Source: an uncultured Actinomycetes bacterium (lineage in GTDB: Bacteria > Actinomycetota > UBA4738 > HRBIN12). From it: a stretch of DNA of 64,000 bases. The stretch's first letter is position 1, and each line of letters opens with the position of its first letter. Of the stretch, positions 49,204-64,000 are shown piece after piece. A program made the position numbers and the translations under genes. The notes beneath the pieces are model-generated. The model was not told the DNA's origin. It saw only the letters and a list, made by a program, of their open reading frames with translations, and searched no databases. The stretch spans positions 774,771-838,770 of the forward strand of contig CAVROD010000004.1 in the NCBI GenBank assembly GCA_963722795.1, given 5' to 3'.

Positions 49204-50385
49204 TCAGCCGGCGTCGGTCGCGGACCCCGCTCGCTCGGCCTCGAGCGCCTTCGGCTGCAGCCGCACCGCGAGCAGCGGGAAGATCGCGACCGACAGCACG
49301 CCCGCGCCCACGAGCGCGGCAGCGTTCTCGGGCAGCATCGACCCGTTCTGCAGGCCGATCTCGCTCAGCGCGACGAGCAGCGGCAGCGCGGTCGCCGTGA
49401 GCAGCATCATCTGCACCCGTCGCGGCGCCGGCAGGTCCTGTCGGTAGACGAACAGCGCGGGCACGCCGCGCACCACGAGCAACAGCGCGAAGAACACGAA
49501 CAGCCGCCCCGGCGATTCCACGATCGAGACCACGTCGAGCCCCATGCCCGACGACACGAAGAACACCGGGATGAAGAACCCGTAGCCGACGGCGTCGAGC
49601 TTCTTCTCGAGCGTCTCCACGTCGCCGGGCGCCCACCGCTTCAGCACCATGCCCGCGAAGAACGCGCCGAGCACGATGTCGAGGCCGAACTCCGCCGACA
49701 GGAACAGCAGGGCCACGAGCAGCAGCACCGTGAGGCGCAGGGTCGTCTGCGAGGTCTCGTGCTGGCCTTCCTCGATGACGCGACCGAACCGCGTGCCCTG
49801 CGTGAGCCGCGGCACGACCGAGAGCGCGAACGCGGCGCCTGCGACCGCGGCGACGCCGATCACCTCCACGATCGAGCTGTAGTGCCCGAGCAGCAGGGCG
49901 ATGCAGAGCACCGGGCCCATCTCGCCCACGGCGCCGGCGGCGAACACGTACCGGCCGAAGCGCCCTTCGAGCATGTGGTGGTCGCGCAGGATCGGCAGCA
50001 GGGTGCCGAGCGCGGTCGTGGTGAGGCCGATCGCGACCGGCAGGAACGCCTTCACGAGCCCGGCCGCCTCGAGCGCGCCGACGATCGCGATCGACAGCAC
50101 GATCGTCATCGCCCAGGCGATCATCGCGAGCCGGCCGGGACGCGCCTTCAGCAGGCTGGGCTCGAGCTCGTAGCCCGCCAGCAGGAAGAGGAACCCGAGC
50201 CCCAGGTTCGCGAACAGCTCGATGTCGTCGGGCTGGGCGAGGTCGAGCACCTCCGGACCGATCACCACGCCGCCGGCGATCAGCAGCACGACCTGCGGCA
50301 CGCGCCCCGGCAGGAACGCCACCACGATGGGCGCCGCGGCGACGACCACCATGGCGGCGAGCAACGCGCCGAGCCCTTCGAGCAT
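49204..50385 (-). CDS. Cation:proton antiporter (CPA2)
   Basis: ~12 TMs; LFLLAG.E, TTALG...PIL, LGAF.AG, GFFIPVFF..SG. Confidence 0.9.
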   Translation of the reverse strand: MLEGLGALLAAMVVVAAAPIVVAFLPGRVPQVVLLIAGGVVIGPEVLDLAQPDDIELFANLGLGFLFLLAGYELEPSLLKARPGRLAMIAWAMTIVLSIAIVGALEAAGLVKAFLPVAIGLTTTALGTLLPILRDHHMLEGRFGRYVFAAGAVGEMGPVLCIALLLGHYSSIVEVIGVAAVAGAAFALSVVPRLTQGTRFGRVIEEGQHETSQTTLRLTVLLLVALLFLSAEFGLDIVLGAFFAGMVLKRWAPGDVETLEKKLDAVGYGFFIPVFFVSSGMGLDVVSIVESPGRLFVFFALLLVVRGVPALFVYRQDLPAPRRVQMMLLTATALPLLVALSEIGLQNGSMLPENAAALVGAGVLSVAIFPLLAVRLQPKALEAERAGSATDAG

Positions 50386-50460
50386 GCCGCAGGCTACCCC
50401 GTCCTCCGTGGTGCGCACAGGCGTCCCCCGACGAGGTCGACACCGGTATCCTTGCGAGCC

Positions 50461-50730
50461 GTGAGGCCGATCGACGGTGCCCTCTCGACGGGCGACCGAC
50501 CGGGGTGTTCCCTGTGCGGCCGACCCACCTACGACCCCGACAAGCGGGAGACGCCGTGGGTGCGGGCGGTCTCGGGCGGGCGGCAGGTGCTGATCTGTCC
50601 GGCCTGCCAGGCGGAGCGTCCGGACTGGGCCGAGGGCCTGGACCGGTGCCGCGCCTGCGGAGGAACGCGCCTGTCGGCGCAGCTCGGGGGAGTGGTGTGC
50701 CGGGCGTGCGGCCACACGGAACTCGCGTGA
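50461..50730 (+). CDS. Small protein with four CxxC motifs (double zinc ribbon)
   Basis: CSLC, CPAC, CRAC, CRAC; start uncertain. Confidence 0.65.
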   Translation: MRPIDGALSTGDRPGCSLCGRPTYDPDKRETPWVRAVSGGRQVLICPACQAERPDWAEGLDRCRACGGTRLSAQLGGVVCRACGHTELA

Positions 50731-50737
50731 GGAACGC

Positions 50738-50810
50738 GGGCGCTTAGCTCAGCTGGCAGAGCGTCGCCCTTACAAGGCGAAGGTCGGGGGTTCGAGACCC
50801 TCAGCGCCCA
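50738..50810 (+). tRNA. tRNA-Val (TAC)
   Basis: GGGCGCT/AGCGCCC acceptor, CT-TAC-AA loop, GGTTCGAGACC. Confidence 0.96.
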
Positions 50811-50824
50811 CCGAGGAAGCCAGA

Positions 50825-51442
50825 TCAGTCGGAAGCGATGATCCAACGGGCGATGCCGTCGATCGAACCTTCCGGGAGATGAACGAGATCGGAGATCACG
50901 GGAGGGCTTGCGCCAACGAAGAATCGCAGCCTTGCAGCTTCCAGGAGATCGCGATCGTTAGCCGAGTCCCCGACTGCTGCGACCTGATCGAGCCGAAGCC
51001 CGAGCCGCGCCGTCAGGTCTCTCAGCCACGGACCTTTGTCGGATGGCCAGACGTGTTCGATCCCGCCTTCGCCGTGCCGGGTCCCGAGAGTGTGCTCAGC
51101 GCCCAGCCGACGGGCGAACCACTCGACCGCGACGCTCCACGTGATGGAGACGATCGCTGTCGTTATCCCCTTCGCTCGTAGGAGGTCGAACGCTTGCTCG
51201 GTGCCGGGTGCGAGGTCGAGGTCGAGTAGTCCGGCAACCAGCTCCTCCTCGGCGTAGTCCCGGTACCACTCGGCCATCGCCTCCCGAGCAGTCGTCACTT
51301 CTTCGACATCCCGGCTGGCGTCCAACCCCTCGAAGGCTGCGCACTCTTCGGTCCGTCCGATCCGGCGGGCGATGGCCTCGACACAGGTCTCGCCGCGGAC
51401 CAAGGTTCCGTCGAGGTCGAAGGCCACGAGCGCGATCGCCAT
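50825..51442 (-). CDS. HAD-family phosphatase (SerB-like)
   Basis: FDLDGTL, IVS, K, VGDSAND. Confidence 0.88.
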   Translation of the reverse strand: MAIALVAFDLDGTLVRGETCVEAIARRIGRTEECAAFEGLDASRDVEEVTTAREAMAEWYRDYAEEELVAGLLDLDLAPGTEQAFDLLRAKGITTAIVSITWSVAVEWFARRLGAEHTLGTRHGEGGIEHVWPSDKGPWLRDLTARLGLRLDQVAAVGDSANDRDLLEAARLRFFVGASPPVISDLVHLPEGSIDGIARWIIASD

Positions 51443-51615
51443 CCAGCAGGTTATCCCACGGGCCGACCGAGAGATCGTCCTCCGCTTCGTGCGGGTGGCT
51501 ACTCGTCGCGATCACTGGTCTCTCGGCCCGCGAGGATGTGGATTCGGAGCGAACAAGCGGGGAGGTAGCCCGTGTCAGAGCGCGTCACTAGCGTGTACCG
51601 CCAACGATCCTCCTA

Positions 51616-51641
51616 GGTCCGGGGGGTGACGCCCCCGGACC
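51616..51641. other. Intergenic hairpin
   Basis: GGTCCGGGGG-GTGACG-CCCCCGGACC. Confidence 0.5.
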
Positions 51642-51698
51642 GAGCACCCTGGTTCTCCATTCTCTTCGCCGTCGGCGGCCTGTGCGATGATCGACGAC

Positions 51699-52478
51699 AT
51701 GCGCGAGATCGATGTGCTTGTCGCACATTCGGAGCGCGTGACGCTGCGCGTCGGCGATGTGTTCCTGAAGGTCGACACGGATCAAGCGCGCATCGACCGA
51801 GAGGTCGAGGTGATGGCGAGGGCACCGATCCCCACCCCCGAGGTCCTTTGGCGCAAGCCGCCGGTGCTCGCCCTCGCGGCAGTTCCTGGAGCGGCGCTCG
51901 GCGTGCTCAAAGAGCCTTCGCGTGCGTCTTCGGCGGCATGGGTTGCGGCGGGTGCCGCCGTCCGCACGCTGCACGACGCTCCGCTGCCACCGTGGCCGAG
52001 CAGGCAGTGCCAGCAGCAACCCGCTCTCAGCAGTCAGGGCACGGTCGAGTTTCCGCCACTGCTCGACTCGGAGTGTGCGTGGCTCGTCGCCAACGATGTC
52101 GTGTCCGCCGACGTTGTCAGGCGCAATCGTGAGGTCGCGGAGGCGGCGCTGCGGCCGTGGACACCGGTGTTCATCCACGGCGACCTGCAGATCGTCCACG
52201 TCTTCGTCGACGGTGACGAGGTGAGCGGCGTCGTCGACTGGTCCGAGGGCGGCCAGGGCGATGCGATGTACGACCTCGCCACGCTGACTCTCGCGCACGA
52301 GGAGCGGCTCGACGATGTCATCGTGGGCTACGGCGGCGACGTCGAGGTCGACGTGGTTCGCGCGTACTGGTCGTTGCGAAGTCTGATGGTGATTCGCTGG
52401 CTAGCCGAGCACGGCTACGGTGCTCCGGCGACCTTCCCAGAGGTCGCCGTGCTCAACTCTTTGTCAGCCAGTTCTTAG
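51699..52478 (+). CDS. APH-family phosphotransferase
   Basis: VFLK, P.PEVL, LH, HGDL, G.VDW, DLA. Confidence 0.88.
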   Translation: MREIDVLVAHSERVTLRVGDVFLKVDTDQARIDREVEVMARAPIPTPEVLWRKPPVLALAAVPGAALGVLKEPSRASSAAWVAAGAAVRTLHDAPLPPWPSRQCQQQPALSSQGTVEFPPLLDSECAWLVANDVVSADVVRRNREVAEAALRPWTPVFIHGDLQIVHVFVDGDEVSGVVDWSEGGQGDAMYDLATLTLAHEERLDDVIVGYGGDVEVDVVRAYWSLRSLMVIRWLAEHGYGAPATFPEVAVLNSLSASS

Positions 52479-52502
52479 AGAAGCGCCGTTCTTCCGAGAC
52501 TG

Positions 52503-52574
52503 CAGCCGACCACCCGCCTGCCGATACCGGCCTCGCGGGGCCTCATCCTGGGCGGAAGGCGGGATGAGGATTCC
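52503..52574 (+). repeat. Cassette-boundary repeat R1
   Basis: cagccgaccacccgcctgccgataccggcctcgcggggcctcatcctgggcggaaggcgggatgaggattcc. Confidence 0.85.
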
Positions 52575-52611
52575 GGCCTCGTGGCAGGGTGAACTCACCT
52601 CAGGCGGTGGC

Positions 52612-52637
52612 GTAACGAATCAGGTTGCTCCATCGTT
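52612..52637 (+). promoter_or_regulatory. ECF-type promoter GTAAC-N17-CGTT
   Basis: 9 nt upstream of the sigma ATG. Confidence 0.55.
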
Positions 52638-52646
52638 CATGGTCCG

Positions 52647-53180
52647 ATGCTGACCGACGACCCAACGACGCACTCAGACGTGTCGAGGCTCACTCCCGAC
52701 GATGGATCCTGGTCGTTCGAGGACCTGTTCCATGCCGAGAAAGACCGCCTCTATCAAGCGATGGTCATGCTGACTGGCAACCGCCAGGAGGCAGAAGACC
52801 TGATGCAGGATGCTTTCGTTCGCGTCTTCGAGCGGTGGGATCGTGTGAGTAGCGTCGAGGACCCCATCGGCTACCTCTACCGCACGGCGATGAACGGATT
52901 CCGAAGCCACTATCGGCGTTCGGCTCTTGCGCTTCGCAGGGCGATCCCGCCTCGCGATCGTCGGGATGACATCGCCAGATCAGACCAGCATCTCGACCTG
53001 ACGCGCCGGTTGGCTCAGTTGACCAAGAAGCAGCGCACCGCGTTGGTCCTCACCGACTTCTTGGAACTGTCCTCCGAGGAAGCCGCTGAGGCGATGGGCC
53101 TCAGTCCCGGTGCGGTGCGAACCCAAGCGTCACGAGCCAGGACCCAGTTGAGGAAGGACGTAGGTGATGAGGATGCCTGA
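52647..53180 (+). CDS. ECF sigma factor (SigE-like)
   Basis: AEDL.QDAF...W, YLYR.A.N, L...QR.A.VL...S.EE.AE.MG...G.VR..ASRAR. Confidence 0.93.
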   Translation: MLTDDPTTHSDVSRLTPDDGSWSFEDLFHAEKDRLYQAMVMLTGNRQEAEDLMQDAFVRVFERWDRVSSVEDPIGYLYRTAMNGFRSHYRRSALALRRAIPPRDRRDDIARSDQHLDLTRRLAQLTKKQRTALVLTDFLELSSEEAAEAMGLSPGAVRTQASRARTQLRKDVGDEDA

Positions 53181-54353
53181 CGCGAAGAGTGAACTCCGAT
53201 CCCTCGCTGACAGTGTCGGCCGCTCTAACGTGCGATACGAAGACGTTCTGAAGTCCTCGGCACGTCGCGGCGGCGTTCGCCGACTCTCGGCGGGCACCGT
53301 CGCCCTCATCGTCGTGCTCCTCTCGGGTTCCTTCCTCGCCCGAGCGTTCGACGACAGCCAACGTCAGCCGAGCGCACGCTCTGTGAGTGGCGTGAACGGG
53401 GCGATCTCGTTCACGGTGGCCAAGAACGAGCGAGTGGCTGAGGAAGAGACCATCGGCATCGTCCAAGGACCAGGATCCCCGATCGTACTCGTCACCGGGT
53501 ACCCCGATCCCGACACCGGCGGATGGTCGCCCGATGGTCGATGGATCGCGTTCACCCGACCGGCAGGTAACTCGCCGGAGAACTTCGACATCTGGCTCGC
53601 CGCCGCCGACGGCTCGCATGAACGACAGCTGACGAGTGGCCCAGCCGCTGACTTCGCGGCGCAGTTCTCGCCCCAGGGCGACCAGGTCATGTTCGAGCGG
53701 ACCGCAGCTGGCCGCTCACCGGCACTGATGCTGATCGGATGTCGGACGGCGGAGGGCTTCGCCGGATCGCCGGAGCCGACGACGAGGTGATCTTCGATGC
53801 GTCCTGGTCCCCGGACGGCAGCCGGATCCTGATGATCGGACACCCAGGCGAGGAAGGTGAGATGAACTGGTTGGCGGTCATGGATGCTGACGGCACCGAT
53901 CGCCGCGTCGTCTACACGGGTGCGTTCAACGAGCCTTCATGGTCACCGGACGGGAACCACATCGTCATCAGCGCCAGCGGCCGTCTGCTCGTCGTGCCCG
54001 TCGACGGAGGCGGATCCGTCGAGGTGCTCGATGGGATCGACCGCCAAGGCTTGGCGGAGGTGGCTTGGTCACCGGACGGGGCAAACATCCTCTACACACG
54101 CCCTATCAACTCGATCCAGGGTGAGGAGTTGTGGGTCGTGCCGGTTAAAGGGGGGTCGCCGCAGAGGGTGGCCGAGGGACTGCAATGGCGAGACGCCTCA
54201 CCGGCGTGGGCACCCGACGGGACCGCGATCGCGTTCGTCCGGGACGGAGACATCTGGACGGTGGACCTCTCGACGAACCAGCAGAGCCGGATCACGTCCT
54301 CGACTGAGTACGAGAGCAATCCGGCGTGGGCCGTGTCCCACGAGGGCGCGTGA
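53173..54353 (+). CDS. Putative anti-sigma factor with TolB-like propeller (frameshift near 53740)
   Basis: Overlaps sigma stop; RR-TM; WSPDG/FSPQG/WAPDG blades. Confidence 0.8.
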
Positions 54354-54448
54354 TGGTGGCTACCGAGGTAGGACGAGGTGCAAGTCGGGTAGATAGGTTC
54401 GTAGCCATCTATAGCCAGGACCTTGTCTCGCCCCTGACGACCTGCTGG

Positions 54449-54530
54449 CAGCGGCTCACAGCCGATCACCCAGCCGACACCGGCCATTGCGGGGACCCCC
54501 ATTCGGGGCGCAGGCGGTCATGAGGACTCC
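54449..54530 (+). repeat. Cassette-boundary repeat R2
   Basis: cagcggctcacagccgatcacccagccgacaccggccattgcggggacccccattcggggcgcaggcggtcatgaggactcc. Confidence 0.85.
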
Positions 54531-54538
54531 TATTCTCT

Positions 54539-54564
54539 GGAACCTATCGGCACTTCGGGACGTA
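54539..54564 (+). promoter_or_regulatory. ECF-type promoter GGAAC-N17-CGTA
   Basis: Just after R2, before the lipoprotein gene. Confidence 0.55.
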
Positions 54565-54575
54565 GTGGTTCGTGG

Positions 54576-55304
54576 GTGAACATGATCCGGCGCTTGATCT
54601 TGATCTCGGCGATGACCGTACTGACGGCGTCATGCGCCAGCGGGGAGTCGTCCCACGCCCAAGGCGGAGCCGGGCCCGCCGCAGCGGCGCCGAGTAGGGT
54701 GACGGAGTCGGCAGCGTCGGTTGCTCAGGTGGTGTGCAGCAAGGCGTCGATCACCCTCCACACCCCAATCGTTCAGGCGCAGCGGGACGGAGTGCATGTT
54801 CAGATCGAGAACCTCGGCGGAGTCTGGGGGTTCGAGTTCCGCGACGTGGCGAATCAGGACATCGTTTGGAACGGCGGTCCGATCGGGCGTGGAACCACAC
54901 GGCTGACGGATTCAACCGGACCGGGAGAAGTGCTCCTCGCCTGCCTGCGGACCACACGTGATGATCACGACGACGATCCTGCCCTGACCGCCAAGCTGAC
55001 CATCGTCGACCCCCAGGACCTCTATGTTCCCTTCGATCTCTCGTGCGGGTTCGGCGAGCAGTTCCGCATGACGATCTGGGCCGGTGACCAGAGTCCCGAA
55101 GAGGTGTTCAGGCGTGTGCCGGGGGTCCGACCGTCGGACGAGTTGATACCTCCGAAGTACCCAGAATCCCCGCAGTACTCGTCCACCGACAGGATGGTCA
55201 TCCGCGACGGATCTGTGGTTGCACGCTTCCTGTTTGGCGGGATCGGACCGGAATGGACGCTGCTGGTCAACGCTTGTCCTGACAGCGGCATCGTCCCCGA
55301 CTAA
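54576..55304 (+). CDS. Hypothetical lipoprotein
   Basis: LTASC lipobox-like signal; four further Cys. Confidence 0.75.
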   Translation: MNMIRRLILISAMTVLTASCASGESSHAQGGAGPAAAAPSRVTESAASVAQVVCSKASITLHTPIVQAQRDGVHVQIENLGGVWGFEFRDVANQDIVWNGGPIGRGTTRLTDSTGPGEVLLACLRTTRDDHDDDPALTAKLTIVDPQDLYVPFDLSCGFGEQFRMTIWAGDQSPEEVFRRVPGVRPSDELIPPKYPESPQYSSTDRMVIRDGSVVARFLFGGIGPEWTLLVNACPDSGIVPD

Positions 55305-55333
55305 CCCGAACTGTCCCGATGCGATCCGCCTTT

Positions 55334-55380
55334 GCGGCTCACAGGCGAACACGCGACGCAGCCGACTATCGGGGGACGCC
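55334..55380 (+). repeat. Cassette-boundary repeat R3 (degenerate, partial)
   Basis: gcggctcacaggcgaacacgcgacgcagccgactatcgggggacgcc. Confidence 0.65.
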
Positions 55381-55409
55381 GTCCCGGACGGTTTCGCCGG
55401 TTCGTGCTG

Positions 55410-56414
55410 TCAGCCTTGCTCCCGAGCCGGATCGGGAAACGGCACATGGTCCGCGTCGAGACTCGGCACGAGGTTCTCGATGACATCACCGGTCTCGGTC
55501 GAGACGATCCGGTCATGGGCCACGATCTGAGTCTGCCGCCCCGGCCACCCCGGCCAGACCAGAGCCAGCGGGGCGAGTGTGGTCGGGTCGGCGTAGATCC
55601 ATTCGTCGGCTGACCCCCAGCCCTCGATGTCGTACACGAGGTGCAGGGCGATCGCTGGTCGGCCAGCGGGATCAACACTTGTGCGGTCGACATCGACGGC
55701 CTGGAGGCCCGAGGCAGCCTCAACGGCAGCCGCTCGCACTGCCGGTGAGCCTGGCCCAACGGGCAGAATCTCGTAGAACAGCAGGTGCCACATACCCGCA
55801 TCCGTCTCGGAGAGCTCCTCCAACGCCACGCCAGCATCGATCGCCGGTGTGTCTGCTGGGTTTCCATTGCCTTCCCGCAACCACTGCATCAGCTCGAATG
55901 CGGTCACAGGAGCGTCACCGAAGTCATTCTGCACACTGGTCGTCAACGAATCGTCTCCACCACCGGTCCCAGGGCCACCGGGGAGTTGCCAGCCAGTCTC
56001 GACGTCATTCGCAGCCTCATAGGCTGCCCGGTCCGCAGGATCGAAGAAGAAGAGTCGGCCTTCCGTCAGCGACGTCCCCTTCCCCTTCCGGTCCCACACG
56101 TAGTTGTGCTTCAGCTCGGTCACGGACCTTCCCGAGTCGTTGAGGTTGTAGATCCGCACCTCGCGTTCGTAATGCTGTCCGGGACTGGCCAAGAGAGTGG
56201 TGCCGGCAGCAGGGCGAACTGTTTCGCCGCCATCAGGACGAATCGCGAGCACTCCGGCGATGAGAGCGACCGTAAGCGTCACACCGAGAGTCCCGGCGGT
56301 GAATCGCTCCCTCCTGGCGCGCCGGTCTTGCGCCCTACGAAGGACCGTCGTTGTGATGTCGCTTTCAGGCAGATCCTGAGCTGCCCGTCGCAGGGCGTTC
56401 GTCACGTTACTCAT
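55410..56414 (-). CDS. Putative anti-sigma factor (CU044_5270-like extracytoplasmic domain)
   Basis: Overlaps sigma stop; RRARRER-TM; P.VRAA...D..GRP.IA...DP.T...L. Confidence 0.75.
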   Translation of the reverse strand: MSNVTNALRRAAQDLPESDITTTVLRRAQDRRARRERFTAGTLGVTLTVALIAGVLAIRPDGGETVRPAAGTTLLASPGQHYEREVRIYNLNDSGRSVTELKHNYVWDRKGKGTSLTEGRLFFFDPADRAAYEAANDVETGWQLPGGPGTGGGDDSLTTSVQNDFGDAPVTAFELMQWLREGNGNPADTPAIDAGVALEELSETDAGMWHLLFYEILPVGPGSPAVRAAAVEAASGLQAVDVDRTSVDPAGRPAIALHLVYDIEGWGSADEWIYADPTTLAPLALVWPGWPGRQTQIVAHDRIVSTETGDVIENLVPSLDADHVPFPDPAREQG

Positions 56415-56931
56415 CTCGGTTACTCATCCCTTCGCGGAGGTGTGCTCGGCCACGTGAGGCGAGCTCACGCGCCGTCGATGCCCGAATGCCCAGGAGTTCG
56501 CCAGCTTCCTCAGAGCTGTAGTCCAGGACGTCGATAAGCACGACGGCTGCTCGCTGCCTGGCTGGCAGGCTCCGGACTAGCTGAATCACGATGTGCCGAC
56601 CCTCGACCTGGGCGATCTCATCCGGTGTCATCGCGACACTGAACATTCGTCGGCGGAGCGCCACCGTAGCTCTACGGCGACGGCTCAGGAAGGCATTGAA
56701 CGCCACACGGTGCAGATACGCCGTTGGTGCATCCATGCGAGAAACGCGTGTCCATCTCTCCCATACGCGGAGGAAGGCATCCTGTGTGATCTCCTCCGCC
56801 TCCGAGGCGTCCCGCGTCGCAAGCACCAGCACTTTGAACAGCCGATCTCGTTCGCGGATGAAGAACTCTTCGAAGTCGCCGCCACTGATCTGAATCGCTT
56901 CTTCCGTCTCCAGCACGTTGTCCATCATCAC
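56407..56931 (-). CDS. ECF sigma factor
   Basis: AEEITQDAFLRVWERW, YL.R.AFN, LP.RQRAAVVL, S.EEA..LLGI. Confidence 0.93.
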   Translation of the reverse strand: MMMDNVLETEEAIQISGGDFEEFFIRERDRLFKVLVLATRDASEAEEITQDAFLRVWERWTRVSRMDAPTAYLHRVAFNAFLSRRRRATVALRRRMFSVAMTPDEIAQVEGRHIVIQLVRSLPARQRAAVVLIDVLDYSSEEAGELLGIRASTARELASRGRAHLREGMSNRDE

Positions 56932-57191
56932 CCGTCTCAACGCGTTGCTGGCTCCCGACGCCTACGGGTCGGCGAGATTCCTTGCAGCTCGGTGCCCCGA
57001 CGTGATCATCGGCACCGGCCGCACCTCGGAGGAAGCTGGACTGCCATCGGCACGGACAGTGGGCAGCCGAGGATGGTGCGGGCCATAGGGTGAAGGCGAG
57101 GGCGTTGAGGCCGCAACCAGGATGCGCAGCGTGGTCCACCAGGAAGCAGCGGGACGGTTGTTTGAAGCAATGTCCTTGGGACGGAACTGGC

Positions 57192-57275
57192 CAGCAGCGG
57201 CTCACAGGCGACCGCCCGCAGCCGACACCGGCCTCGCGTGGACCATCGGGACGAAGGGCGGCATGGAGACCTGAT
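57192..57275 (+). repeat. Cassette-boundary repeat R4
   Basis: cagcagcggctcacaggcgaccgcccgcagccgacaccggcctcgcgtggaccatcgggacgaagggcggcatggagacctgat. Confidence 0.85.
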
Positions 57276-57303
57276 CCACGCCACTGATCGTGACGGTGAG
57301 AGA

Positions 57304-58345
57304 TCAAAGATCGACGGCACCCCCTAGAGGCTTCCTCCTCAGCTCTTGCTCCGGATGCATCGAACGCCACGATCTCCCCTCCCGGAGAAATCTCGGTTCC
57401 CTCCGCTGTGATCTGTCCCCTGAACGCGGCAACGAAGAGACTCGTCCCTTCCAGCAACGATCGAGGCACCGGGTGCAGTCTGCCCGTGATCGTGGAGCCG
57501 TCGGTCATCCGCATCTCCACCCGATCGACCGCGGGAGACACGGGCTGTACCACCAGCAACGCGTCTTTCCCGAACCCCGCGATCATGGTTTGTCCCAAGA
57601 CCTGATCTCCAGGCGGTTTCACCACTAGCCCCGCGACCGCGTCCGATCCTCGGACACGAATCACCTGGCCGTAGGGTTCGTCGATCCCGTAGATCCACCA
57701 TGGGCCTGCGACCGGGTCTTCGCCGCGGGCGAAGATCTTGCCCACGGGGAAGACACCTTCGATCTTCGGTTGCGCTCGCTGCCCGCGGTCCTTCCACATC
57801 AGCGAGAACTCGGTCAAGGGGCTGTCCGCTTCGTCCAGGAAGGTGATCATGCCTGGTCCGCTGCCACCGAGCGGCACCGCGTAGAGCGGATAGCCGACGC
57901 GCATCCGCGGAGGGGCTGGGAGGACAGCGCCGACGAACGGCTCCGCTGCCCCCTCCGCGAGGACCTCGACGCTGGCGGTGCCTGGAGGCGCTGCACCGAA
58001 CGCCATCTCTCGGGATCGGATCTGCGTGAGATGGATGTCTGGGAGCGGCGTGGAAGCATCGACGCAAAGGCGTGGTTCGGGGAGACCGACTCGACGGATG
58101 CGCTGGCATCGCGTCGTGCCGTCGTCCGACCCGAGCAGCTCCCAGACTCCGCTGAAGGTGTCGATGTCTCCGGCCAGATACTCCTGGCCCGTGGGTGACA
58201 CAAGCGACGGGGTGACCGCAACATCGGACGACGGCCTCGCGCCACTGGGCTTCGGGGCGGACGGACTCCCGGTGCACGCGATCAACGCGCTCGCGAGGGC
58301 GAGCCAGACGGCTCCGGATCTCAGTCGACCCGACAACTTCGCCAT
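57304..58345 (-). CDS. Hypothetical lipoprotein with two similar beta-domains (3' end inferred across a frameshift)
   Basis: LIAC lipobox; G..PP...SVEV and V...V.RVE....DG domains; C-terminal IVAFDASG. Confidence 0.65.
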
Positions 58346-58424
58346 CTGAGTAGGACCATCGCGACGCTCGAATGGTTCCCTCGTCCTTCGGTGTTCCGCC
58401 ACCGCGGACTCCAACCCGCCATCC

Positions 58425-58504
58425 GCGGCTCACAGGCGACCGCTCGCAGCCGACACCGGCCTCACGGGGACGCCAAGCCGGGCGAAGGCCGGAAGGAGAG
58501 CCTG
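58425..58504 (+). repeat. Cassette-boundary repeat R5
   Basis: gcggctcacaggcgaccgctcgcagccgacaccggcctcacggggacgccaagccgggcgaaggccggaaggagagcctg. Confidence 0.85.
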
Positions 58505-58513
58505 CTTCGACGG

Positions 58514-59112
58514 CTAGAGACCCTCTCCACTGATGCTCTCGACGATCTCTGTCCAGTCGTGTCCAGGATGGACCGTCCTCAACGCAGCCGAGAGCCACCG
58601 AAGTTGGCCCGCGTCGAGGGTCGGCAACACGTTCGCGAAGTCAGCCTCGTCGTGTTCTCGCCGGTTCTTCGCCTTGAATAGCAGCACTATCTCCGGGACC
58701 AGGATGGGGAACCCATCTGATGACGCGGAGCCGATATTGGCCAGAGGGCGACGGATCGTGTAGTCGCGGCGGAACATCCACTCGGTGCCGACGGACTCGT
58801 TCATCAGCAACTCGAAGACCCAGGAGCCTCCGCGTCTCGTCGGCACCAGAGCGCGTGCAGAGGTGGAGCGAGCGGCTCGTCGCGAGGCAGCGGTGAGAGC
58901 GTGCCCTCCTCCGCGATGTGTAGGTCCCAGCCTTCGAGACGGTGACGCACGAGCCACTGATCCATACGCAGGATGGCGATGTCCAGGTCGAGGTGTTCTC
59001 TCGTCTCCTTCCCCAGCCACAGATCGAGCGCCCAGCCGCCAGCGACCCACCAAGAAGCGGGCACTCCGCGCATGAGACGAGCAAAGTCGTCGGGGCGATA
59101 GGTCGATTCCAT
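58514..59112 (-). CDS. Nucleotidyltransferase, ANT(2'')/Lnu-like fold (frameshift near 58820)
   Basis: WWVAGGWALDL.LG..TREH.DLDI; PEIVLLFKAK..R..DE.DF...LP.L. Confidence 0.8.
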
Positions 59113-59157
59113 CGCGCACCTTCCGGGCGAGGAATGCGAGTCTAGGCTGCTGGCCGC

Positions 59158-59243
59158 CAACAGCGGCTCCCAGGCGACCACCCGCAGCCGACACCGGCCT
59201 CGGGGGACCCGTAGAGGGGAATGGCGGCATGAGGACTCTGATC
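59158..59243 (+). repeat. Cassette-boundary repeat R6
   Basis: caacagcggctcccaggcgaccacccgcagccgacaccggcctcgggggacccgtagaggggaatggcggcatgaggactctgatc. Confidence 0.85.
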
Positions 59244-59314
59244 GCCGTTTCCCGCTTCGGCGCGACTTTGGCCTTCACCTAAGCGAACGGCCTCCCGTCG
59301 GCGTTCATGCGGCG

Positions 59315-59872
59315 ATGGATACCTTCCCACCCGTGTCCACAGCGCCTGCTGGGACGACAGAAGCTAGGGAGGACGTGCTGAGGCCAAGCATGGACCCACC
59401 TGCCGATTTCGAGACCTTCTACCACGAGCACCATCAGCGACTGCTCCGAGGGTGCTACGTCCTCACCGGCAACGTCCACGAGGCTGAGGAACTCACCCAG
59501 GACGCCTTCCTCAGCGTCTGGCAGCGGTGGGACCGGGTCGCGTCGATGGATGAGCCGCTCGGGTACTTGTTCACGACGGCCCTCAACAGGCATCGAAGCG
59601 CCCTGCGCCGAGTAGCGCGGCAAGCTCGACGAGCGATCGGCATGGGCACTGGCGGAGACTCGTTCGCAGCGGCTGATGAGAGCGACGCCGTCGCTCGGGC
59701 CTTGGCGACGCTGCCGTTGCGCCAGCGGCAGGCGATTGTGCTGACGGACCTCCTCGGGTACGACTCGGCCTCGGCTGGGCGCATCCTCGGTATCAAGGAC
59801 ACCACGGTCAGGGCGCTGTCATCCCAAGCGCGAGCGTCACTTCGGATGCGACTGGAGCTGAACCATGACTGA
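59315..59872 (+). CDS. ECF sigma factor
   Basis: FETFY, AEELTQDAF..VW.RW, YLF..ALN, LP.RQR.AIVL, LGI...TVR. Confidence 0.93.
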   Translation: MDTFPPVSTAPAGTTEAREDVLRPSMDPPADFETFYHEHHQRLLRGCYVLTGNVHEAEELTQDAFLSVWQRWDRVASMDEPLGYLFTTALNRHRSALRRVARQARRAIGMGTGGDSFAAADESDAVARALATLPLRQRQAIVLTDLLGYDSASAGRILGIKDTTVRALSSQARASLRMRLELNHD

Positions 59873-60455
59873 CATGGACGTGAAGGACCGGCTCAACCGG
59901 ATCGCGGATCGGGTAGCGGACAGGAAGCCCTCGCTCGCAGAGCTGGACCGTGCTCGCACCCGCCGAACAGCGCGTCGGCGGATCGGAGCGGGGGTGGTCG
60001 GACTCACCATCGGGGCTGTTGGCCTCCTAGGCATCGCGGTCTGGTCAGCATCCGACTCACGTACGCAGTTGGCCGTTGGTGGAGGTCTGACGCCATCCCC
60101 ATCTCCGACCATGAGCTGCCCGGATGCTCGCTCCACGCCACTCGTGCTCAGGGGTCTCGCGTTCGAGGTCGATTGCCTCTCCGCGCCAGCCGGAGAGACC
60201 TTCGACCTCCACTTCGAGAACCGCGATCAGGGCATCCCGCACAACCTATCCCTCGCGGCTGTCCGGGACTGCGAGGTCACCGATGGAGGGTCGAACGTTA
60301 GGTGTCCCCCAGAATCGGTCATCGTCCAAAGCGAGGTGGAGACTGGTGATCTCGTCGCGGTCATAGAGATACCCCCGTTGCGACCCGGCGACTACTACTT
60401 CTACTGCGACGTTCATTCATATGCGCCCGAGTTCGGGCGCCTCACGGTGACTTGA
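59865..60455 (+). CDS. Putative anti-sigma factor with C-terminal cupredoxin domain
   Basis: Overlaps sigma stop; RRR-TM; F.N.D...PHN...PG.YYFYCDVH. Confidence 0.8.
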   Translation: MTDMDVKDRLNRIADRVADRKPSLAELDRARTRRTARRRIGAGVVGLTIGAVGLLGIAVWSASDSRTQLAVGGGLTPSPSPTMSCPDARSTPLVLRGLAFEVDCLSAPAGETFDLHFENRDQGIPHNLSLAAVRDCEVTDGGSNVRCPPESVIVQSEVETGDLVAVIEIPPLRPGDYYFYCDVHSYAPEFGRLTVT

Positions 60456-60459
60456 ATCA

Positions 60460-60525
60460 ACCACCCGCCGCCGACACCGGCCTCGCGGGACGCCATCTGG
60501 GGCGCAAGGGCGGATGAGGACTCCG
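60460..60525 (+). repeat. Cassette-boundary repeat R7
   Basis: accacccgccgccgacaccggcctcgcgggacgccatctggggcgcaagggcggatgaggactccg. Confidence 0.85.
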
Positions 60526-60743
60526 TCTTGCAGAGACGATCGGACAGCCAAGCAGGAACCTTCCACGGCTAGTAGGCAGCCGAGGGCGGCAAGGGGGCGT
60601 CGGGGCGTTCAGGGCGCTGAGGCGAGCCTGCAGGAGGCGGCCCGTGCCGGTCGGTCAACGTCGTCGTGCAGTGGTGACCGGCTCAGCGATAGCCCATAGC
60701 GAGACACGCTCAACTCGGACCGGGGGAGGGCGATGATGACGGC

Positions 60744-61025
60744 ATGCTTCGGAGAGTTGGGTGGAGTCTGGTCGGTCTGCTTCTCGGTGGGGTCGCAGGC
60801 TTGATCGTTGCGCTTCCCATCCTGGTGGTGACGGATTGGCTGGGCATCACCAACCATGTCGAGGATGAGCCGCTGCACGGCTGGATCGTGTTCGTCGCCA
60901 TCCTCGACGGCTTGATCCTGGTGGGCGCGTGCGTTGGGGCCGTCACGGGGTGGCGGCGAAGCATCTTGGTGAAACGTGCTAGGCGACCGCTCCCCGTTAC
61001 GAACGCCGATTCCACGGATTCGTAG
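60744..61025 (+). CDS. Small two-TM membrane protein
   Basis: Two hydrophobic helices with basic flanks. Confidence 0.55.
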   Translation: MLRRVGWSLVGLLLGGVAGLIVALPILVVTDWLGITNHVEDEPLHGWIVFVAILDGLILVGACVGAVTGWRRSILVKRARRPLPVTNADSTDS

Positions 61026-61216
61026 GTCAACATCTCAATGGTGCCTTCCGCCTACGACGGTGAAGGCAAGGTGGGGCACCGAATGGGGGTCACGGGTTGC
61101 CGAAGCCGGATCTTGCGTAACACTTCGCGTAACAACGCACCGACACCCCGAGGTACGCAGCGGTACTCAGCGACACAGCGTTTCCGCAGCTCAAAGCCCT
61201 GACCAGCACGTCTTTC

Positions 61217-61264
61217 TCGCCCTTACAAGGCGAAGGTCGGGGGTTCGAGACCCTCAGCGCCCAC
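61217..61264 (+). repeat. Duplicated 3' part of tRNA-Val (attR-like)
   Basis: tcgcccttacaaggcgaaggtcgggggttcgagaccctcagcgcccac; lacks 5' acceptor strand and D-arm. Confidence 0.92.
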
Positions 61265-61449
61265 AGAGAGTTCAGGCCCTATTGGGCTTCTGCGGCCGCC
61301 CCTCTTGGACGCTGTGCCCATCGGCGCGAAACTCGCCCTAACACACTGGAGTGAAGAAGGGTGAGCCAAGAAGAGCAGACCGACGAGGACTTTGATCAGA
61401 TCCGACTCGAAGTGCCCGAGTTCGAGACGTAATCATCATCGATTCTGCA

Positions 61450-62825
61450 TCAGTTCCGACTGGCGGCCTCGACCAGGTCAACGATGGTGGCGTCATCCAG
61501 TCGACCGTTCCTCGTTTGAACCGAGATTACGACTTGCCTGCCGCTAGGTGTGGTCCAGTAGACCGTGTCCTCGTCGTATCTGGTCACGACGGTTCCTGCA
61601 ATCGTGTCGTTCGGTTCGGCAGAGGCTGGGAGTTCCGGGTCAGCGACGAACGCCGATACGAGCAGTGTCCCCCTCTCGGCGAGGAGGGCGCTACCGGTGT
61701 CCCCGACCATCGTGAAGCCGGAACGCTCCAGCAGGTCGACCAGGAACGTGTGGTCCGGACAGTCCGGATCGAGGAACGTGCAAGCCGGAGATGGCGTCGT
61801 GGGTTGAGGCTCCACGAGTTCTGGCGTCCCGGCGAACCAGTAGGCGTCTGGACCGCCGACGACCTGACACGAGGGCGGGATCCCGCCAACGACCTCGGAC
61901 TCGGCGTGGGCGAGGTCCCTACTCTCTCCGTCCATCAAGACGTAGTCGCCGATCTTGGCGATCCGGTTCCCAGAGTCGTCGACGAGCCACACGTCGTCGC
62001 CCTCCTCCGCCAGTGAGTAGCCGTTCGGCCATACGACGAACAGGGGTGAGTCATAGCCGGAGACGGTGAGACATCCGTTCTGGCTCGTGAGCGTCCCTCC
62101 CGCGACAGCCTGACCGCCTGACGGTCCCGACGAGGAGACGAGGAGCGAAGGATCGGCGTCGCAAGTAGCAAGACCAAGCTTGGTCGCATCGACCGTCGAG
62201 GTCGGGTCGAGGGCCGAGTCATGGTCGAAGACCTCACCGACGGTCTCCGCCTCGAATCGCACGCCCGTGTTACCCCATGGCCATTCGACGAAGATGAAGT
62301 AGGCGGAAGCGCCCGGGCCAGGGAGAGTGCGCAACGCGCCAGGAACGATGCAGGCTCCGTTGGCGACTTGCTCGCCAGACGCAGGCGCTAATACGAAGAG
62401 GCTGATGGTCTCCGCGTAGTTGAGGTTCTCGAACTCGATCGGGGTCCCAGTAGGCAACGTCATCGGCGCTTCCTTTGTCGGTTGCTCCAACTCGGCCCCC
62501 GGCGTCTCGATGGAGTCGAGTGGGATCTCGACCCCCTCGTAGGTAGCCTCGATGGATGAGGAACCTCGCCGTACCAGACCCTGATTGTGAGGGGAGACGA
62601 GGGTGGCCCGGCCGTGCCCCCACCTGGCTCAGACCGGAACGCGAGGACCAGGAAGGCGAGAGCAGCGATGGAGATGATCGCCGCCACAAGCCCGGCGGCG
62701 AGCCGATGACGAAGACCCTGTCGATCGCCCGGTGACGACTGCGCAGGGCGGCTCGCGATCTCGTCCCAGAGGTCCGGCGAGGGGTTCCGTTCGATCCGAC
62801 GCAGACGCTCGGCAAGGTCATTCAT
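61450..62825 (-). CDS. Putative multi-domain anti-sigma factor (frameshift near 62550)
   Basis: MNDLAERLRR..PSPDLW..I, RHR-TM; G.L...GCL...VVWP.GY...G..IA..GD.V...G domain. Confidence 0.7.
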
Positions 62826-63293
62826 CGTCTACCTCCAGGAGTTCGTGAAGCCGAGCGCGCCCTCGATGCAGGTGTGCGCCGATCGTTCCCTTGCGGGTCC
62901 CGAGGATCGTGGCGATCTCGTCGAGGGAGTAGCCCGCGTAGTAGTGAAGGACGATCGAGGCTCTCTGACGTTCGGAGAGTTGTGCGAGTGCCTCAACGAG
63001 GTCCTGCGGCTCCGGAACCGGGCGTTCTTCGATCTCGGAGGCGTCCGTCAGCCGCTTGCGGTCCTTCAGGTCGGAAGAGGCGAGCCGGAAGGCGACCTTC
63101 CAGACCCAAGGCACGACGTCACGGATCGAGGATTCGGAAGCGAGGGCGCGAGCGAACGACTCCGCGACGGCCTCACGCGCGACGTCCGGGTCGCCCGTGA
63201 TAGGCGAGGAGGGCGTAGTAGAGCCGGTCGCCCTCATCGCGGTAGATCTGCTCTATGTCGGCGCTCTGGCGTCACTCGGGTTCCTTGCGTCAC
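62818..63293 (-). CDS. ECF sigma factor (two apparent +1 frameshifts in the 5' part)
   Basis: IEQIYR....RLYYALLAY/TGD..VA.EAVAE.F, W.WKVAFR, LS.RQR..IVLHY..GYS..EIA..LG. Confidence 0.85.
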
Positions 63294-63415
63294 GCCATAT
63301 TGAGCGTGGGAAGGGGCAGATGTTTTACACGGGACGACACTTCTTCTCAGCCGACAGGCGGATTGGCCGTGCCGCCCTAGCGGCAAAAGAACGGGCGCGG
63401 CAGCTCGACCAAGGT

Positions 63416-63495
63416 CAGCAGCAGATCACAGCCGACCACCGCAGCCCGACACCGGCCTCGCGGGGACCCGTCCCAAGCGTAGGCGCTTCACGAGA
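63416..63495 (+). repeat. Cassette-boundary repeat R8
   Basis: cagcagcagatcacagccgaccaccgcagcccgacaccggcctcgcggggacccgtcccaagcgtaggcg. Confidence 0.8.
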
Positions 63496-63523
63496 CGCGA
63501 CACCGGACGGCTCTCCGGCTCAT

Positions 63524-63802
63524 CTAATCCCGGCGACCTCTGATCAAGGCGAGGAACTCGTCGCCCCCGTCGTCGTCGATGTCGATCAGAGGCCGCGACT
63601 GGATCGAACGTCTCGCGCTGTCCGAGAACGATTCGGGCAGCTCTTCGAAGACGACGAGCATCGGGTATCGATTCTGAATCTTGTTCTCGCGAGGTAGCGA
63701 GAGCCGCCTCCAAACGCCACCTTGGCCGTAGTCGTAGACGCACCAAAACTCTCGCTTCGTCGCTGCCTGGACTTCGTCACTCACAAGGAGGACCTCCCGC
63801 AC
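63524..63802 (-). CDS. Small hypothetical protein (YDYGQGGVW motif)
   Basis: Protein-like ORF following R8; internal compensating frameshift possible. Confidence 0.55.
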   Translation of the reverse strand: MREVLLVSDEVQAATKREFWCVYDYGQGGVWRRLSLPRENKIQNRYPMLVVFEELPESFSDSARRSIQSRPLIDIDDDGGDEFLALIRGRRD

Positions 63803-63844
63803 CCACGGTCGCAGCCCCTGCGGAGGGAAGGCGAGGCGTGATGC

Positions 63845-64000
63845 TTACATGCCGAGAGGGAGAGTTGCGATGGGTAGGAACAAGATCGACACCGCGAGCG
63901 AGATGAACGCAGCGATGCTGACCACTGCCCGCACGCTGGAGCGTCGAATGCGTCGGACTCGAACGGCTGCCAAGACTGGAGCGACGACCCCCAGGGCGAG
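63845..64000 (-). CDS. Membrane protein C-terminus (5'-truncated by window edge)
   Basis: LALGVVAPVLAAVRVRRIRRSSVRAVVSIAAFISLAVSILFLPIATLPLGM-stop. Confidence 0.5.
   Translation of the reverse strand, partial: LALGVVAPVLAAVRVRRIRRSSVRAVVSIAAFISLAVSILFLPIATLPLGM

Follow-up and report, generated by a model that had tools for sequence, protein, structure and literature searches.

Direct repeats of about 90 nt bound small gene modules inside tandem tRNA-Val islands of an uncultured actinomycete: a possible attachment-type site

Introduction

Sedentary chromosomal integrons, such as those of Vibrio with their Vibrio cholerae repeats (VCRs), hold many short modules bounded by similar one-way repeats of about 60-140 nt, and integron attC sites are characterized by RYYYAAC...GTTRRRY ends. 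Cargo lacking a recombinase of its own is moved by the host XerC/XerD pair in the arrays of integrative mobile elements exploiting Xer (IMEX) at dif, and in the pdif modules of Acinetobacter plasmids, where the pdif sites alternate in orientation. Repetitive extragenic palindromic (REP) sequences and bacterial interspersed mosaic elements (BIME), miniature inverted-repeat transposable elements (MITE), and repeats of the mycobacterial interspersed repetitive unit (MIRU) type are intergenic, measure 40-100 nt, abut the ends of open reading frames (ORFs) and are dispersed genome-wide. We know of no integrons found in Actinomycetota, where the known stacking mechanism uses tRNA fragments. Here, we describe a family of direct repeats of about 90 nt that bounds 17 gene modules beside tRNA-Val in an uncultured Actinomycetes bacterium, starting in a stretch of 64,000 nucleotides (hereafter the window; C4:774771-838770 of assembly G000) and continuing past its end. 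There is no statistical doubt that this feature is real, and its anatomy resembles that of a cassette array. We tentatively regard the repeat as an attachment-type site acting in double-strand form, or as what such a site left behind, that would result from the serial insertion of cargo by a recombinase acting in trans.

Growth by tandem accretion has been described in additive islands, including the tRNA-fragment direct-repeat islands of 'Ca. Actinomarinales' (PMC7771536), the tycheposons of Prochlorococcus (bioRxiv 10.1101/2020.12.28.424599), and the ssrA islands of Dehalococcoides (PMC3146451). As described there, additive tRNA islands share with our locus the one-way stacking of modules beside a tRNA gene, mostly without integrase, with a direct repeat at each joint and a content that varies between close relatives. 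The host locus itself has direct repeats of the tRNA 3' end, a cognate integrase in some relatives and a content differing among relatives, while the variant data for the 90-nt array amount to one contig. Contrary to such tRNA islands, 15 joints here carry a ~90-nt sequence without significant similarity to the tRNA or to the conserved arm preceding its fragments, the modules are smaller (median about 1.1 kb), and the repeat is confined to this species, whereas the tRNA-Val site is genus-wide.

The array shares with those of integrons the many short modules mostly of unknown function, the similar repeats in one orientation, some duplicates, and a foreign composition. However, it has no attC ends, hairpin or IntI, no attI site or cassette promoter (Pc) was found, and conservation peaks at the centre of the site and not at its ends; moreover, 7 of the 17 modules are inverted, and several consist of two genes with their own regulator. 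Similar to the Xer-dependent modules, the cargo has no recombinase of its own and lies between short sites, and the tyrosine recombinases that the assembly does show are all XerC/XerD-like; contrary to them, the conserved core is GC-rich (guanine plus cytosine) and does not resemble dif as commonly described, and all sites are direct instead of alternating like pdif. The repeat also departs from REP, MITE and MIRU sequences, since it occurs in one 24-kb stretch and has no inverted termini.

Inventory of the Repeat Family

The assembly consists of 4 contigs (3.08 Mb, 70% GC) and is rated 67% complete, with about a third of the marker genes missing. It was searched as a whole with an nhmmer profile built from the first 8 copies and with a sequence-only covariance model; the inventory given here comes from the latter, run with filters off, where strong loci reach 40-84 bits. 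The family comprises 18 loci, 15 strong and 3 partial, every one of them on the + strand, and is confined to a single 24-kb stretch of low GC content (C4:827260-851632). In the rest of the 3.08-Mb assembly there are no credible copies, the other nhmmer matches all having E>2, with which the covariance-model scan agrees. The copies within the window, with cmsearch E-values from 5e-12 to 2e-22, are the following:

R1, 52490-52581, + strand: 63.6 bits in cmsearch; left ~10 nt non-homologous to the family
R2, 54442-54536, + strand: 73.4 bits
R3, 55326-55407, + strand: 39.9 bits; the most divergent of the strong copies
R4, 57189-57279, + strand: 70.3 bits
R5, 58416-58511, + strand: 65.2 bits
R6, 59153-59247, + strand: 69.5 bits; a duplicated 2.1-kb segment begins within it
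R7, 60440-60530, + strand: 65.1 bits; left ~16 nt non-homologous and overlapped by the end of the preceding ORF
R8, 63413-63505, + strand: 61.2 bits; final copy within the window

Since 10 further loci (R9-R18) are located beyond base 64000, at C4:839046-851632, the array runs from window position 52490 to ~12.9 kb past the window end. The partial copies are R9 (model positions 13-64), R13 (25-78), and R18 (4-38).

A first-pass annotation, made by eye on the window, had marked eight copies, all of which are present on the + strand within ~20 nt of the positions it gave. Its consensus matches the one obtained from the MAFFT alignment, and its observation that the first 50 kb are free of copies holds with both models over the whole assembly. 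When contig and genome are scanned with the profile, the copies are strictly clustered and in one orientation, which bears out this part of its interpretation.

Anatomy of the Repeat

The consensus derived from the MAFFT alignment is about 85-95 nt long, and the copies are 79-89% identical in BLAST pairs. Over the central 14 nt, which read GCCGACACCGGCCT in R4, pairwise identity averages 85%, as against 71% in the left part and 58% in the right part. The best-conserved central block lies around GCCGACACCGGCC, and forms an imperfect dyad centred on ACAC, with a 14-nt quasi-repeat on its left. The repeats are intergenic, sit tight against ORF ends, divide mostly unrelated genes, and are more conserved than the genes between them. 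Spacers measure 324-4411 bp (0.3-4.4 kb, median about 1.1 kb for the 17 modules) and have a GC content of 61-68%, compared with 70-76% in the flanking DNA. Ten of the 17 modules are read on the + strand and, in seven of nine cases, their stop codon is found between a few-nt overlap and 34 nt before the next repeat.

R1 and R7/R17 have no homology to the family in their left 10-16 nt, and R18 retains only the left ~35 nt, that is, its left third. From the alignment, the ends of the array look like hybrid sites. Between the left and right parts of the copies, no co-variation is seen (r=0.16, reached by 1270 of 5000 permutations), an absence that would fit hybrid sites in a comparison with little power.

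None of the 18 loci carries a RYYYAAC or GTTRRRY end within about 20-30 nt of the matching end. The only conserved hairpin is GCCG-ACAC-CGGC; the RNAalifold consensus fold has 6 pairs (-3.96 kcal/mol) and no compensatory change, and all eight single copies folded as DNA behave like their shuffles, with z-scores from -1.20 to +0.15 and no stable fold. These features make it extremely unlikely that we are dealing with a classical integron cassette array, or with a cluster of attC sites lacking integron integrases (CALIN), in which the attC sites are unusual, even though the short modules mostly of unknown function, mostly co-oriented, and the homogeneous repeats do recall sedentary chromosomal integrons. 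Regarding the enzyme, contig C4 has no PF00589 domain, and the two tyrosine enzymes encoded on contig C3, at 99-115 bits, fall short of the cut-off of 265 set for the integron-integrase model, in an assembly that at 67% completeness leaves room for a distant intI. The first-pass annotation had likewise discarded both attC, on which the lack of end motifs and of a stable fold bears it out, and CRISPR, whose repeats of 25-50 nt and non-coding spacers of 25-70 nt are not matched by repeats of ~90 nt and gene-bearing spacers of 324-4411 bp.

A MITE, REP or other small transposable element piled up by chance would have the right size (~90 nt) and the right intergenic position. However, such an element would have to be found in 18 of 18 cases in one orientation and in no place outside the 24-kb stretch, and the repeat has neither terminal inverted repeats nor a stable hairpin, nor any plasmid, phage or viral contig match beyond the seed motif, so we consider this explanation very improbable. 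The plasmid and phage searches consisted of a BLAST of one copy with its flanks, which gave no match, and a looser 17-base pattern retrieved 13 viral contigs with the seed motif only. An Rfam 15 scan of window positions 50000-64000 at E<=1 returned only the tRNA and a chance miRNA match, none on the repeats. The repeat is thus not an integron, a CRISPR array, a REP/MITE or a known RNA; two of the outcomes that the first-pass annotation had seen as damaging to its own interpretation, a genome-wide REP/MITE and an Rfam family, are both absent.

The palindrome GCCG-ACAC-CGGC, which forms the best-conserved block, could also be read as the operator of a dimeric regulator. According to this explanation, the repeat would be a non-recombinational intergenic element (an operator, a promoter, or a 5' leader with a translation-initiation region) of co-regulated envelope genes, spread and homogenised by homologous recombination or duplication. 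Its right end resembles GAAGG followed after 4-5 nt by ATG, and of 17 copies examined, 11 have an ATG with AGG or GAG behind it. The short ORF that begins at this ATG runs, in R1 and R2, into the start codon of the gene that follows, and 10 of the 17 modules are read rightwards, away from the repeat. Nonetheless, the orientation stays + even beside the 7 of 17 modules whose genes lie on the - strand, such an ATG is absent from 6 of the 17 copies, and the short ORFs are inconsistent between copies, being unrelated past the first 3-4 residues. A scan for sigma-70-like promoters and intrinsic terminators found none that coincides with any copy, and the copies have no stable fold (z from -1.2 to +0.15). 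A regulatory element would also fail to explain why the array ends in a half-copy, why its base composition is foreign and why it keeps to a single island; we consider it unlikely, though a serious competitor of the attachment-type explanation.

Tandem Islands at tRNA-Val

The array is nested in a larger structure, anchored by the following features:

50738-50812, + strand: tRNA-Val(TAC), left anchor of the tandem islands (ARAGORN; Rfam tRNA, 69.5 bits)
61095-61216 (arm) and 61217-61268 (tRNA fragment), + strand: attachment (att) site of the tRNA-Val island family, end of island A (att profile, 8.5e-54)

The 3' 52-59 nt of tRNA-Val recur at C4:835987-836038 and C4:847873-847931, which makes three occurrences at 98-100% identity, and the fragments at the locus are each preceded by the same ~130-nt arm or by a remnant of it. 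The att profile was built from relatives, where the arm is conserved in 6 loci of 5 of them. A third arm is split in two pieces, C4:851655-851701 (22 nt after R18) and C4:853724-853771, which are contiguous in the profile and have 2022 bp between them. The split arm with its insertion spans C4:851655-853771 (L001:13655-15771); the insertion encodes a secreted InlB-B-repeat protein of 623 aa, and no tRNA fragment follows the split arm. Because of the recurring tRNA-Val fragments and arms, the locus is recognized as three tandem islands, A, B and C, at tRNA-Val, with the 90-nt repeats lying inside them, a nesting that the first-pass annotation missed. No integrase is present in any of the three.

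Islands A and B have a common right end, a 2.1-kb segment that occurs twice at 98.9% identity (window 59171-61268, or C4:833941-836038, and C4:845829-847924). It comprises the right part of a repeat, a sigma/cupredoxin module, another repeat, a small membrane ORF, the arm and the tRNA fragment. The homology begins within a repeat, at GACCACCCGCAGCC, and leftward of this point the modules are wholly different, five in A versus eight in B. As for the right flank of the array (C4:859000-862000; L002:1000-4000), it is found in relatives on other contigs or far from tRNA-Val (in G026, at C1:2340768 vs C1:154920), and is for this reason not the ancestral neighbour of tRNA-Val.

The comparison set consisted of 36 genomes of the same genus, a draw of 150 genomes from the order, and 185,579 species in an exact-pattern scan. 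Among the matches listed, at least 21 of the 36 same-genus genomes carry extra co-oriented tRNA-Val 3' fragments, spaced 1.5-15 kb. In seven loci of six relatives (G004:C57, G004:C11, G014:C8, G009:C7, G023:C6, G036:C4, and G017:C8), 19 of 21 fragments are preceded by the conserved arm; only the tRNA gene proper and a divergent copy in L029 depart from this. The arm carries in relatives two GCATAAC and two GGTACTCA motifs, and the number and spacing of fragments vary among the 5 relatives inspected for it. An island of G004 encodes a sigma + PD40 pair 46% identical to that of module 1 of our array. tRNA-Val is a genus-wide hotspot where mini-islands with similar cargo are stacked, parted by arm and tRNA fragment. 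A tyrosine integrase directly follows tRNA-Val in only 2 of the 36 relatives, G017 (an intact ORF of 407 aa) and G036 (two overlapping ORFs) and, given the stacked similar mini-islands, accretion mobilised in trans is the local norm for the genus. The genus as such builds arrays comparable to the 90-nt one with a different site, arm plus tRNA-Val fragment, which also went unnoticed in the first-pass annotation. Split ORFs were seen in the G036 integrase (L046, G036:C2, 4462-5686) and in a sulfatase of the G017 island (L047, G017:C8, 6626-8193).

The coexistence of both kinds of site raises the question of whether the repeat arose by divergence from the genus-wide tRNA-Val att site, as an old or variant att used by the same integrase family, a reading that overlaps with our own. 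The locus, the kind of cargo and the direct-repeat logic are those of the att arrays of relatives, and R18 lies 22 nt before the arm remnant. Moreover, a colinear local alignment of the two consensuses scores 36, compared with 25.0 +/- 4.2 for dinucleotide shuffles (reached by 32 of 2000); this score may be taken as a hint, and does not count as evidence of homology. However, the att profile matches the three real att copies (1e-20 to 1e-56) and none of the 18 repeats, the repeat profile, run on a 5-kb target, gets no better than E 0.4-2.4 with att units, and intact att copies (92-100% tRNA-fragment identity) coexist in the same array. In addition, the 18 copies share derived features, so they multiplied after the divergence, which again calls for a site-specific process. 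Taken together, we judge descent from the att site to be quite unlikely.

Proposed Serial Insertion in Trans

What is observed at this locus is how the repeat is built, that it keeps to one stretch and one orientation, that the base composition is foreign, and that the array is nested in tandem tRNA-Val islands. From these, we infer that recombination at the repeat built the array, and the identity of the enzyme likewise. Further indirect support comes from the copies being better conserved than the genes between them, from the hybrid-looking ends, from the lack of co-variation between left and right parts, from the homology of islands A and B that begins within a repeat and has different modules to its left, from the mostly family-less cargo, whose one compared gene has its closest homologues outside the genus, and from the stacked mini-islands of the relatives. 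According to the attachment-type explanation, the best supported one, small cargo modules would have been inserted serially, and in the same orientation, into the island at tRNA-Val, the repeat marking the joints left behind. The recombinase would be encoded outside the locus and act in trans, and the business end of the site would probably be the best-conserved central block around GCCGACACCGGCC. Breakpoints of module gain or loss would then be expected inside the repeat, above all from GACCACCCGCAGCC to GACACCGGCC.

Several findings weigh against this explanation. The left ends of R1 and R7 may merely have been overwritten by the adjacent ORF ends, and the junctions derived from R1, R7, R18 and the duplication disagree, falling at repeat positions ~10, 16, 30 and 15. 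The 14-nt unit GACCACCCGCAGCC occurs three times in tandem in R16 (C4:845784-845830, window-equivalent ~71014-71060), versus once in its twin R6, a triplication that looks like slippage on the internal quasi-repeat, which would explain it best. Seven of the 17 modules lie on the opposite strand. Contig C4, with its 908 kb, encodes neither a tyrosine (PF00589) nor a serine (PF00239) recombinase, so the linked enzyme that the first-pass annotation expected beyond position 64000 does not appear on it; the only recombinases found in the 67%-complete assembly are two Xer-like tyrosine enzymes on contig C3, typed with NCBIfam, which stay at 99-115 bits against the integron-integrase model (cut-off 265). 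No second array was found in the 36 same-genus genomes, in the 150-genome draw from the order, or in the exact-pattern scan of 185,579 species, where two single chance matches came from unrelated taxa.

Evidence from other strains stands on both sides. Scanning metagenome contigs with the pattern gave four contigs, three of them with true copies (L020, and L022/L023, which overlap mutually). L020, an independent metagenome contig, reproduces, at 99% identity, the joint in which R10 links module 9 to the start of module 10, and so confirms it; on the far side of module 9, to the left, another gene takes over, 55% identical to a gene beside a sigma gene on contig C1. The strain comparison proposed with the first-pass annotation delivers this one variant contig, with the breakpoint outside any recognisable repeat and not within one. 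This sole strain-level breakpoint is located 28 nt before the start codon of module 9 and 138 nt from the partial copy R9, and the model finds no repeat there on either sequence; a 'degenerate repeat' seen by eye to its left was dropped, as the model did not support it. In the contigs of a public soil-metagenome run (X1), 9% of the sampled words of the stretch are present, and 167 contigs matched it, 20 at >=99%, 64 at 95-99% and 83 at 90-95%. Four joints were noted, two of them linking R14 to R1 and R14 to the arm with a shorter side of 31-34 nt, and one skip having a 21-nt side. We rejected them as recombination products, the simplest account being other copies of the repeat, or relatives, mapping in two pieces, and no circular junction, such as a capture system would leave, can be claimed from these contigs.

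Single divergent copies are also known in G017 (C33; L008/L024) and in L022/L023. Both have a PD40 gene at a distance of ~300 nt, and these genes are 81% identical, but the copy lies on one side of the gene in G017 and on the other in L022/L023, the contexts being otherwise different. With filters off, no array surrounds the single divergent copies of G017 (C33) and G036 (C2), and G036 has no repeat pair beside tRNA-Pro. G020 gave a weak single match, which was set aside, and also figures in the tRNA-Val and right-flank comparisons.

The cassette-capture idea of the first-pass annotation survives in its description of a clustered and co-oriented repeat, which is neither attC, CRISPR, REP/MITE nor Rfam member and bounds low-GC, mostly family-less cargo; the status of recombination site and the linked recombinase are the parts that the data do not show. 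The 90-nt site is unlike any known site, and the evidence for it comes from one incomplete genome. A bolder version, possible but doubtful, is that of a new gene-collecting platform in Actinomycetota, with a double-strand site of ~90 bp and a quasi-palindromic core of ~30 bp unrelated to attC or tRNA, which would be served by a recombinase encoded elsewhere (possibly the host Xer pair), nested in an additive tRNA-Val island and storing envelope-sensing sigma/anti-sigma modules and lipoproteins. If this were true, a second site, neither tRNA nor attC, would bound 17 modules, meaning that cassette-style gene storage arose more than once, and a short, testable DNA site would be at hand to seek the enzyme. 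Regardless of this, the genus-wide tRNA-Val hotspot represents a clean natural system for accretion without integrase.

Modules and Cargo

The cargo is unusual in that it includes whole sigma/anti-sigma sensing units instead of single enzymes, which suggests an exchange of complete units able to regulate the cell envelope. According to Pfam, the array holds six distinct sigma genes of the extracytoplasmic function (ECF) type, one of them in two copies, each beside a membrane partner; one partner has PD40 repeats and another one a cupredoxin domain. The remaining Pfam cargo comprises a DUF6174 protein, a partial ANT(2'')-like protein and an amidase fragment, whereas most other ORFs of the array have no Pfam family. 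Ten of these family-less ORFs were compared with NCBIfam, with one weak match, and ten with PHROGs, with none. Of the family-less ORFs, seven open with a signal peptide plus a lipobox-like cysteine; small hydrophobic proteins are encoded by three. The genes found within the window are listed below:

50825-51442, - strand: HAD hydrolase of island A, left of the array (Pfam PF12710, 1.9e-18)
51687-52478, + strand: APH-family phosphotransferase of island A, left of the array (Pfam PF01636, 7.2e-18)
52647-53180, + strand: module 1, ECF sigma factor (Pfam Sigma70_r2/r4_2)
53164-53790 and 53739-54353, + strand: module 1, PD40 beta-propeller partner in two frames (Pfam PD40)
54576-55304, + strand: module 2, lipoprotein of 242 aa (lipobox-like N-terminus; no Pfam or NCBIfam match)
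56407-56940, - strand: module 3, ECF sigma factor (Pfam sigma domains)
55410-56414, - strand: module 3, membrane protein partner of 334 aa (weak NCBIfam CU044_5270 match)
57280-58345, - strand: module 4, lipoprotein gene (signal peptide and lipobox in the translation; frame plot of GC at third codon positions, GC3; no Pfam family)
58804-59181, - strand: module 5, partial ANT(2'')-like nucleotidyltransferase (PF10706, 2.1e-8, 40 of 149 profile positions)
59315-60455, + strand: module 6, ECF sigma factor and cupredoxin-domain partner (Pfam; second copy past the window)
60744-61025, + strand: small membrane ORF of 93 aa (hydrophobic; weak Holin-X, E 0.0038, under the Pfam cut-off)
62818-63237, - strand: right part of module 7 and start of island B, sigma region-4 protein (Pfam)
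62270-62821 and 61450-62490, - strand: module 7, two overlapping ORFs without Pfam family
63524-63802, - strand: module 8, first ORF, 92 aa, without family

This gene content agrees with the one that the first-pass annotation assigned to the intervals from R1 to R8, including the 52-nt copy of the tRNA-Val 3' end between R7 and R8. Its mention of detoxification modules was overstated, the cargo being mainly ECF sigma pairs, lipoproteins and small membrane proteins. The 346-aa ORF at 61450-62490 has no NCBIfam, PHROGs or usable Atlas match. In module 6, the proteins of the second copy are 100% and 99.5% identical to those of the first. The split of the PD40 partner of module 1 into two overlapping ORFs (window 53164-54353) is a frameshift or a long-read indel error, and the frame of module 4, with its start near 58345, is open through R4 into the next module (window 56672-58414, - strand). 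The lipoprotein of module 2, the only cargo gene compared in this way, is closest (39-50% identity) to proteins from elsewhere in the order, in other genera and families (genomes G052, G279, G112 and G051). Genomes G085, G218, G268 and G276 were also among the matches, and the placement outside the genus does not depend on G085. Homologues from the same genus reach ~31-39%.

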